In this document: positions 23,414-23,695 of the stretch, piece after piece
Numbering within the stretch: the stretch's first letter is position 1
Layout of the letters: each line of letters begins with the position of its first letter
Assembly (NCBI GenBank): GCA_013288045.1
Contig: JABDCP010000003.1
Span: 1,899 to 65,898 of the forward strand
From: Candidatus Babelota bacterium
Lineage (GTDB): Bacteria; Babelota; Babeliae; Babelales; Babelaceae
Length of the DNA: 64,000 nt
Direction of reading: 5' to 3'
Made by a program: the position numbers and the translations under genes
The notes under the pieces: generated by a model
The model's database searches: none
Told to the model about the DNA's origin: nothing
The model's input: the letters and a program-made list of their open reading frames with translations, nothing else

Positions 23414-23661
23414 GTTTTTTCCTTCGCCCATTTCTGGGGTAACGTGTGCCTCGCTAATGTTAATCAGCGGCATATCATAGAAGCACGGACTTATACCCTC
23501 AGTCTTATTAGCTTCTATGTTACAGAGCTTGGAACTGGCAAGCATCCCAAGGTGTGATTTTTAGCGCTCCTAATTAACGTAGCCCGATGACTACACTAGT
23601 CCTGGCTGAAGCTGGTCAACGCGAGCTGTTGAGCTGCGCCAATAATGGCGCGGTAATTGAC
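22129..23661 (-). mobile_element. IscB-only element (probable immobilised IS200/IS605-derived or island remnant) bounded by tRNA-Ala 3'-end direct repeats
   Basis: The 1.53-kb segment contains only iscB plus its upstream structured region and is flanked by the 34-nt direct repeat. I found no tnpA, integrase or recognisable subterminal ends. Confidence 0.5.
23414..23661 (-). ncRNA. Candidate IscB omega-RNA (guide plus scaffold); boundaries uncertain
   Basis: This 248 nt lies immediately 5' of iscB on the same strand, where characterised IscB loci encode their omega-RNA. Nested hairpins include CATAGAAGC/GCTTCTATG (23476-23519) enclosing GACT/AGTC, and GCGCCA-ATAA-TGGCGC (23636-23651). GAAGGA lies just before the ATG. 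Confidence 0.45.
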
Positions 23662-23695
23662 GAGGCCATGGGTTCGACTCCCATCAACTCCACCA
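23662..23695 (+). repeat. Duplicated 3' fragment of tRNA-Ala (31/34 identical to 22095-22128)
   Basis: gaggCCatgggttcgaCtcccatcaactccacca versus gaggTGatgggttcgaGtcccatcaactccacca in the intact gene. Similarity stops abruptly 5' of gagg. Confidence 0.9.

Follow-up and report, generated by a model that had tools for sequence, protein, structure and literature searches.

The closest described system to the locus reported here is the GstIscB element (ISGst5) of Geobacillus stearothermophilus. [quoted passage not shown] The TAM of GstIscB has been experimentally defined as TTCAT, and lies beside the left end (10.1101/2023.03.14.532601). The window analysed here, a stretch of 64,000 nt of contig JABDCP010000003.1 from Candidatus Babelota bacterium, belongs to a metagenome bin of 1.04 Mb in 31 contigs that is 67% complete. 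Its IscB locus is similar to ISGst5 in several respects. The omega-RNA is located upstream of iscB, is bounded by the right end, and takes its guide from external DNA; the TAM is the transposase target TTCAT, with a right-end motif that is two positions off the TAM; and there is no tnpA in cis, while the upstream host gene has the same orientation. Unlike ISGst5, however, the window copy is without a left end and sits in a tRNA gene to which a second 3' half has given back its function, and the TAM is mutated at the one near-target that the genome still has.

Two other kinds of systems share part of this arrangement. Integrase-borne islands and prophages in tRNA genes also have a direct repeat of the tRNA 3' end with the tRNA intact on one side; whereas the window locus has no integrase, one of its repeat boundaries is an IS200/IS605 right-end junction, and the insert is a truncated IS of 1.5 kb. 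In ClvR and toxin-antidote drives, and in homing-endonuclease introns, a nuclease against the wild-type allele is linked to a resistant functional version. The resemblance to these is one of layout only, in a locus known from sequence, and it possibly arose through a repair accident.

The best overall explanation, which we hold with good confidence, is that an IscB omega-RNA element inserted in a tRNA-Ala gene and lost its left end, and that the intact tRNA should escape cleavage. The omega-RNA and the IscB are members of known, well-described families with an unusual local history. What is particular here, to judge from the sequence, is an immobilised nuclease-guide pair linked to its own repaired target, which appears recoded at the TAM and in the seed.

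Omega-RNA family and element boundary

The RNA scaffold lies on the strand of iscB:

23427-23661, minus strand: omega-RNA scaffold of the HEARO family (Rfam RF02033 match; RNAalifold pairs)

A sequence-only reading of this DNA had proposed a candidate omega-RNA in the 248 nt (23414-23661) upstream of the iscB ATG at 23413 (minus strand), with hairpins at 23476-23519 and 23636-23651 and an element boundary at 23661/23662. The covariance-model search was positive for this candidate. In an Rfam scan of the whole window, HEARO (RF02033), now recognised as the IscB omega-RNA family, matched 23661-23439 of the minus strand with 108.1 bits (E 2.5e-21), compared with a gathering score (curated cut-off) of 83 bits. 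The match spans the full model (positions 1-211) and has 23661 as its first base, and both hairpins, at 23636-23651 (GCGCCATTATTGGCGC) and 23476-23519, are helices of the HEARO consensus alignment.

The boundary was also located by comparison of family copies. The genome has three HEARO copies, namely the window's copy and two others (A and B), which align from GTCAA(C/T) onward and have nothing in common upstream. Another 17 copies, from six related genomes, start at the same GTCAA and have unrelated 5' flanks; in total, 20 of 20 family copies begin with GTCAA after unrelated upstream flanks. The GTCAA homology and the HEARO match thus both start at 23661, in agreement with the proposed boundary. 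The transposon right end coincides with this 5' edge and reads ...TTGAC| on the plus strand, and the right-end junction is TTGAC|GAGG. No tRNA was found at any of the other 19 HEARO loci.

At its 3' end the scaffold has a GNRA hairpin, CCCA-GAAA-TGGG (23427-23438), which lies outside the Rfam model and has a covarying counterpart, CCCC-GUAA-GGGG, in copies A and B. This hairpin is followed by a ribosome-binding site (GAAGGA) and then the ATG, so that the scaffold end at 23427 is directly upstream of iscB on the same minus strand. RNAalifold analysis of 22 family sequences showed that 64 of the 66 consensus pairs are canonical in the window's copy, and 7 are doubly compensated relative to the majority. 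With these pairs kept, the window omega-RNA is as well preserved as the copies adjoining intact genes. Its sequence and predicted pairing indicate that 23427-23661 is the scaffold of a genuine IscB omega-RNA of the HEARO family.

Displaced tRNA fragment and predicted guide

Two copies of the tRNA-Ala 3' half flank the element, one of them within an intact gene:

23662-23695, plus strand: displaced tRNA-Ala(GGC) 3' half of 34 nt (31/34 identical to 22095-22128)
23662-23677, minus strand: predicted 16-nt guide, 5'-UCGAACCCAUGGCCUC-3', directly 5' of the scaffold start (length by analogy with OgeuIscB)
22053-22128, plus strand: intact tRNA-Ala(GGC) (ARAGORN; Rfam tRNA, 63 bits; alignment with the sister species G005)

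The fragment at 23662-23695 corresponds to tRNA positions 43-76, which comprise the variable loop, the T arm, the acceptor 3' strand and CCA. It is the right-end flank of the original insertion. The guide is predicted to be transcribed from the DNA just outside the element; its template is the tRNA fragment, because the 5' edge of the covariance model sits at the proposed boundary. The guide would then be copied from the displaced 3' half of the tRNA, since the element once landed inside a tRNA-Ala gene.

The guide strand reads ...GGGAGTCGAACCCATGGCCTC, and the corresponding antisense sequence of the intact gene is GGGACTCGAACCCATCACCTC. They differ at three places, 5, 6 and 17 nt from the scaffold (22099/23666, 22100/23667 and 22111/23678 in the intact gene and the fragment, respectively). 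Position 17 would probably fall outside a guide of OgeuIscB length. The earlier proposal of a guide antisense to the T-arm side of tRNA-Ala, with three mismatches of which two are 5-6 nt from the scaffold, therefore agrees with the 34-nt tRNA 3' half adjoining the scaffold and with the sequence comparison.

Empty site and insertion motif

The sister species G005 is the closest in the genome collection (about 94-95% nucleotide identity over both flanks), and no HEARO was found in its genome. At the same locus it has dsbD and a spacer followed by a single tRNA-Ala, ...GGCATTCAT|GAGGTAATGGG...CCA, i.e. ...TTCAT|GAGG.... The 40 nt after the CCA of this tRNA are identical (40/40) to window positions 23696-23735. 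From the empty-site comparison, therefore, the window carries 1,567 extra bases, which are the element and one extra tRNA 3' half. The uninterrupted tRNA-Ala of G005 also bears out the suggestion of the earlier reading that the tRNA was the ancestral target. The right-end junction places the original insertion directly 3' of TTCAT, in the anticodon stem.

The same motif was found at the far (left) ends of the family. Read in the direction of iscB, ATGA lies directly beyond the far end in 16 copies (A and B of this genome, 11 from relatives, and the nearest three homologues in the database). It is followed by A in 14 of them and by T in 2; on the other strand the motif is TTCAT or ATCAT. The right-end motif TTGAC is two changes from TTCAT. 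At the G005 sites that correspond to copies A and B, the flanks are contiguous but diverged (6-nt and 40-nt differences), and ATGAA is absent at the B site. Because of this divergence, the two sites confirm insertion, and not the exact joints.

Some features of the far ends concern the host genes next to them. In nine copies (L026, L033, L030, L035, L039, L042, L032, L040 and L052) the far end reads ...GGAG-N(7-10)-|ATGA(A), and the ATG seems to open the downstream host gene (N-termini MKLLKNSLCLLFIFF, MKKPSFIILF and MNKYMLLALLF). It seems that the element inserts at ATGAA start codons and supplies a Shine-Dalgarno sequence. In copy B (C9:22218-23828, L002) and the two closest database homologues, L051 (1248-2862) and L052 (about 300-1875), the IscB reading frame has no internal stop and ends at the TGA of the target ATGA. 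Where a start-codon ATGA also ends the IscB frame in this way, stop and start overlap. The corresponding codon of the window copy (22091-22093) is TGG because the TAM is ATGGA, and the ancestral ATGAA would give an in-frame stop.

The iscB gene and its transcription context

The nuclease gene and the gene upstream of the RNA are on the same strand:

22064-23413, minus strand: iscB ORF of 449 codons, ATG at 23413 and stop TGA at 22064-22066 (Pfam, PDB alignments)
23697-24515, minus strand: upstream DUF4097-like gene, same strand as iscB (ORF list, Pfam)

The IscB protein matched the Pfam families RRXRR (2.9e-62) and HNH (3.7e-13), and it aligned to the solved IscB structures, including OgeuIscB (E about 1e-32 to 1e-34), with the segments IDPG, VEI..F, DHIVP and HWIDA present. 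The catalytic motifs comprise IDPG in RuvC-I, E in RuvC-II, DH in HNH and HxxD in RuvC-III, in a split RuvC with an inserted HNH. The locus is similar to the HEARO (RF02033) and OgeuIscB omega-RNA systems (PDB 7UTN, 7XHT) in its helices, its position relative to iscB and its catalytic residues. Unlike the solved IscBs, the window protein has low identity to them, in two local alignment stretches; and it differs from OgeuIscB in its predicted TAM (ATGAA versus NWRRNA) and in the additional 3' GNRA hairpin beyond the Rfam model.

No database record of the 449-aa IscB was found. The nearest IscB is 67% identical; the closest homologues (65-67%) do not adjoin tRNA genes, and the nearest ones in the database cover 93-96% of the query. 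The database gene call at this locus is a protein of 493 aa (P0001), whose ATG at 23545 lies inside the omega-RNA. The true iscB start is 23413, because homology (Pfam from residue 2, PDB alignments) begins there. An RNA gene is not likely to be annotated at 23414-23661. Since the RNA is an ordinary family member and the 493-aa call overruns it, the main value of the analysis is a corrected annotation.

Homology of the IscB to its relatives runs through DGYSYSYLP...EKN and ends near 22135, and the last 22 or so codons are antisense to tRNA-Ala. This non-homologous C-terminal tail of about 22 residues, which lies beside the TAM-interacting domain, might disable the IscB.

The stop codon of the DUF4097-like gene (TAA, 23697-23699) is 1 nt from the tRNA fragment, and no promoter-like site was found on the minus strand between this gene and the scaffold. 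Read-through from the DUF4097-like gene is therefore the likely source of a transcript that would give both guide and scaffold. In the other direction, iscB transcripts that reach the stop codon would be antisense to nearly the whole intact tRNA-Ala; the two genes are convergent, with an overlap of 65 nt.

The lost left end and the second tRNA 3' half

The far end of the window copy differs from that of the other copies:

22129-22135, no strand assigned: truncation junction ACTCCACCA|ATCTATTC (three-copy alignment and far ends of relatives)

At 22128/22129 the CCA end of the tRNA is joined to the 3' region of iscB. Copy B and the closest homologues continue for about 60-120 nt past DGY(S/R)YS, through a subterminal hairpin and the terminus to ATGA; whereas the homology of the window copy stops about 22 nt after ...SYLP, where the adjoining base is the CCA end. 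Compared with copy B, the window copy is about 95 nt short; the final IscB codons, the hairpin of the left end and the LE terminus are gone. A left end with the subterminal hairpin is thus absent from the window copy and present in A, B and the relatives. The element can no longer be excised by TnpA because its left end is lost, and it is probably immobile. By its sequence it would be classed as a non-autonomous element of the IS200/IS605 type, with the reservation that the window copy lacks one defining feature, the left end. A search for the Y1 (HUH) TnpA (PF01797) gave 0 hits in the 67%-complete genome; Y1 transposases are present in 6 of 9 relatives in the genus.

These losses bear on an alternative explanation, that the locus is an inert relic in which the IscB and its omega-RNA are inactive, and that the TAM change and the three mismatches are neutral divergence unrelated to self-targeting. 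The left end is gone, TnpA was not found in the genome, the IscB C-terminus is altered, and several family copies in relatives are visibly decayed. On the other hand, iscB remains an open frame of 449 codons in which no catalytic motif is missing, and the omega-RNA keeps its 64 of 66 pairs like the copies adjoining intact genes. The tRNA changes, which also weigh on this alternative, are considered with the selection analysis below.

In the intact tRNA-Ala, the 5' 42 nt and the upstream flank are collinear with G005. The T stem ATGGG/CCCAT occurs in both 3' halves and, among the aligned relatives, otherwise only in G005; both halves are therefore from this clade and not from a distant donor. 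An assembly search allowing up to 6 mismatches found no second copy that could have served as donor for the intact 3' half, and within this assembly a paralogous donor was rejected. The microhomology at the junction (CCA|iscB) is at most 1 nt. A 7-mer, ATTCTTT, which is also present in the native downstream flank, was rejected as microhomology because it is out of register. The pattern TTGACGAGGNNANNGGTTCGA, which represents the right-end/tRNA junction, was found only in this genome among 261 genomes of the phylum. Another pattern, TCGAACCCATNNCCTCGTCAA, gave 2 metagenome and 3 genome matches, which were taken as chance because there was no tRNA or HEARO at those places. The junction was found in no other assembly and the copy is a singleton, so the structure rests on one metagenome-assembled contig.

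For a single contig, an assembly chimera has to be considered, in which element-bearing and empty-site haplotypes were merged into an arrangement that exists in no cell. The assembly is a metagenome bin of 31 contigs with 67% completeness, and excision naturally yields element-bearing and element-free alleles in one population. However, a switch point needs common sequence, and there is none between CCACCA|TTTATAATTC and CCACCA|ATCTATTC; a merge of haplotypes would not delete about 95 nt of the left end; and, besides the altered TAM, the intact half shows 3 differences from the fragment. A chimera is very unlikely, since the empty-site allele has no sequence in common with the junction.

The exact position of the junction at the CCA end is unexplained by a random illegitimate join. 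Another explanation of the locus is a tRNA-restoring element. In such an element, 22095-22128 would be a specialised left end, with a T-arm hairpin in place of the transposase hairpin, and insertion at the TTCAT of tRNA-Ala would rebuild the gene, in the way of integrase-borne islands. A direct repeat of the tRNA 3' end around the insert is the classical signature of target-restoring islands; the repeat runs precisely from the transposase cleavage point to CCA; and if the TAM were the ancestral ATGAA, the target TGA would terminate the IscB frame, as it does in copy B and the two closest homologues, although an in-frame TGA is expected by chance in one case out of three. No second example was found, however: the left ends are of the ordinary kind, and a tRNA is lacking, in the closest IscBs (65-67%) and in the 19 other copies, and the junction is unique among the 261 phylum genomes. 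In addition, the tRNA half is unlike the left ends of the family, with its hairpin 5 nt from the cleavage site instead of about 20 nt, and the insert has no integrase, iscB being the only ORF longer than 120 aa between the repeats. This explanation is considered very improbable. A truncated ordinary element beside a repaired tRNA is the preferred reading of the junction.

Predicted protection of the intact tRNA from cleavage

Two features of the intact gene are important for recognition by the IscB RNP:

22090-22094, plus strand: altered TAM/transposase target, TCCAT versus TTCAT (ATGGA versus ATGAA on the iscB strand; alignment of relatives)
22095-22110, minus strand: near-cognate protospacer TCGAACCCATCACCTC, mismatched to the 16-nt guide at positions 5 and 6 (22099 and 22100)

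TTCAT is present in 17 of 17 aligned relatives; whereas the intact tRNA of the window has TCCAT. The change is T to C at tRNA position 39, which converts the pair G31-U39 to G31-C39, and the tRNA stays sound because a G-U pair becomes a G-C pair. C39 is rare: of 260 other genomes in the phylum, 8 have it, none of which belongs to the genus; uniqueness of C39 to this genome was accordingly rejected. The intact tRNA is the best match to the 16-nt guide in the assembly, and it is followed by ATGGA. Elsewhere in the assembly, guide-like sites have at least 3 mismatches and are not followed by ATGA.

Both differences would be expected to matter. In GstIscB, single-base-pair changes of the TAM ablate cleavage, and binding is tolerant of seed mismatches (10.1101/2023.03.14.532601). 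OgeuIscB uses a guide of about 16 nt, in which mismatches at positions 1-14 abolish cleavage and those at positions 15-16 are tolerated (PMC9640706); the mismatches at guide positions 5 and 6 should matter for this reason. The RNP should therefore not cut its own chromosome, since the tRNA differs both at the TAM and at guide positions 5 and 6, and by analogy with the two enzymes the intact tRNA should be doubly protected. The sequence-only reading had regarded the scaffold-proximal end as the seed, for which the OgeuIscB mismatch data give direct support. It had further proposed that the mismatches spare the intact tRNA gene. The predicted effect stands by the same analogy, but the stronger change, T39C in the TAM, had been overlooked, and "spare" can be read here as an effect and not as selection.

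Selection or drift in the tRNA

Compared with the majority sequence of the genus, the functional tRNA has 3 derived changes (T39C, C to G at position 48, and C to G at position 59), the fragment has 1, and G005 has 1. More changes in the functional tRNA than in the functionless fragment are the reverse of the expectation under relaxed constraint. One of the three changes strikes the invariant fourth base of ATGA. Both the excess of changes in the functional gene and the position of this one argue against the inert relic.

The divergence of the gene as a whole was compared with that of all 30 tRNAs of this genome. The tRNA-Ala(GGC) is 96% identical to that of G005, and the other tRNAs range from 87 to 100%: Thr-GGU is 96% identical, Arg-UCU and Ile 95%, Cys 93% and Ala-UGC 87%, and 10 of about 20 are identical to those of G005. 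Accelerated evolution of the tRNA-Ala was dropped as an explanation, as Ala-GGC is in the more diverged third and is no outlier. The number of changes is thus ordinary, and only their positions are remarkable. The relic explanation is consistent with these figures, because the divergence of Ala-GGC is matched or exceeded by that of Thr-GGU, Arg-UCU, Ile, Cys and Ala-UGC; furthermore, all the changed tRNA positions vary among relatives or keep pairing, and C39 occurs elsewhere in the phylum. With the evidence from both the element and the tRNA, an inert relic is plausible, but we consider it rather less probable than not.

As the tRNA-Ala(GGC) is no more diverged from G005 than several other tRNAs, selection of the differences as escape changes and their origin by drift are judged about equally probable. 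The same positions can also be compared in other genomes. At tRNA-Ala(GGC) positions 47-48, opposite guide positions 5-6, nearly all genomes outside the genus have TC. Within the genus, where HEARO is common, TA, TG, CC, CG or TC is found in a small sample.

Proposed history of the locus

The preferred explanation, an element that inserted in the tRNA gene and later lost its left end, would involve the following steps. The element would have inserted 3' of TTCAT, between positions 42 and 43 of tRNA-Ala(GGC), and the right-end flank, on which the guide of the omega-RNA is templated, would thereby have been the tRNA 3' half. A transcript reading through from the DUF4097-like gene, once processed, would carry about 16 nt ahead of the scaffold that are complementary to the tRNA in its variable loop and T arm. 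An active IscB loaded with this RNA would cut a protospacer with ATGAA, which would be the uninterrupted ancestral tRNA-Ala allele, i.e. the "donor joint".

At a later step, about 95 nt at the left end, the last part of iscB among them, were lost, and a complete tRNA-Ala 3' half is now placed against the truncated iscB. The host has a working tRNA because of this complete 3' half. Our best guess for the origin of the second 3' half is one illegitimate join between element-bearing and element-free copies of the locus from the same clade. Excision may have left two such copies on sister chromosomes, or one may have come with DNA of a conspecific cell. The joined product would be favoured by selection because it restores the tRNA.

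The locus is a natural case in which an IscB element struck an RNA gene, lost its exit, and coexists with the repaired target. The repaired target differs at exactly two features known to block IscB cleavage, the TAM base and the seed. It thus gives a simple and testable example from nature of how self-targeting by the guide RNA of a transposon is resolved by a host or element. With an active nuclease, the layout would also be like that of engineered toxin-antidote drives. A stronger proposal is that the locus is a natural "cleave-and-rescue" cassette, in which the IscB RNP acts against the wild-type tRNA-Ala(GGC), with TTCAT and a variable loop and T arm that match the guide, and is linked to a functional tRNA recoded at the TAM and in the seed; this we regard as doubtful. 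If it were true, an incoming sensitive allele, acquired by recombination or DNA uptake, would be cut, and the cassette would serve as the template for its repair. In this way the cassette would spread, or keep out the wild-type allele, with no need of a transposase and no loss of the tRNA to the host.

Other HEARO copies and RNA genes

The two other HEARO copies of the genome are different in structure. Copy A (C1:43063-43467, L001) is a 405-nt miniature that comprises the omega-RNA, about 110 nt of iscB and the left end, and its nuclease gene is deleted. The guide of copy A may not match the original donor joint, because 40 nt are missing relative to G005 from the guide flank to ATGAA. Copy B (C9, about 22200-23980) is located inside a gene of tandem repeats of about 96 nt. 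Its joined flanks match 11 places in the G005 orthologue (C1:729585-731031), which has a Sel1-like look from LADQGF. Elsewhere in the window, at 13376-13571, a tRNA-Ser(GGA) is followed after 11 nt by a small SRP RNA (Rfam, 55 bits).
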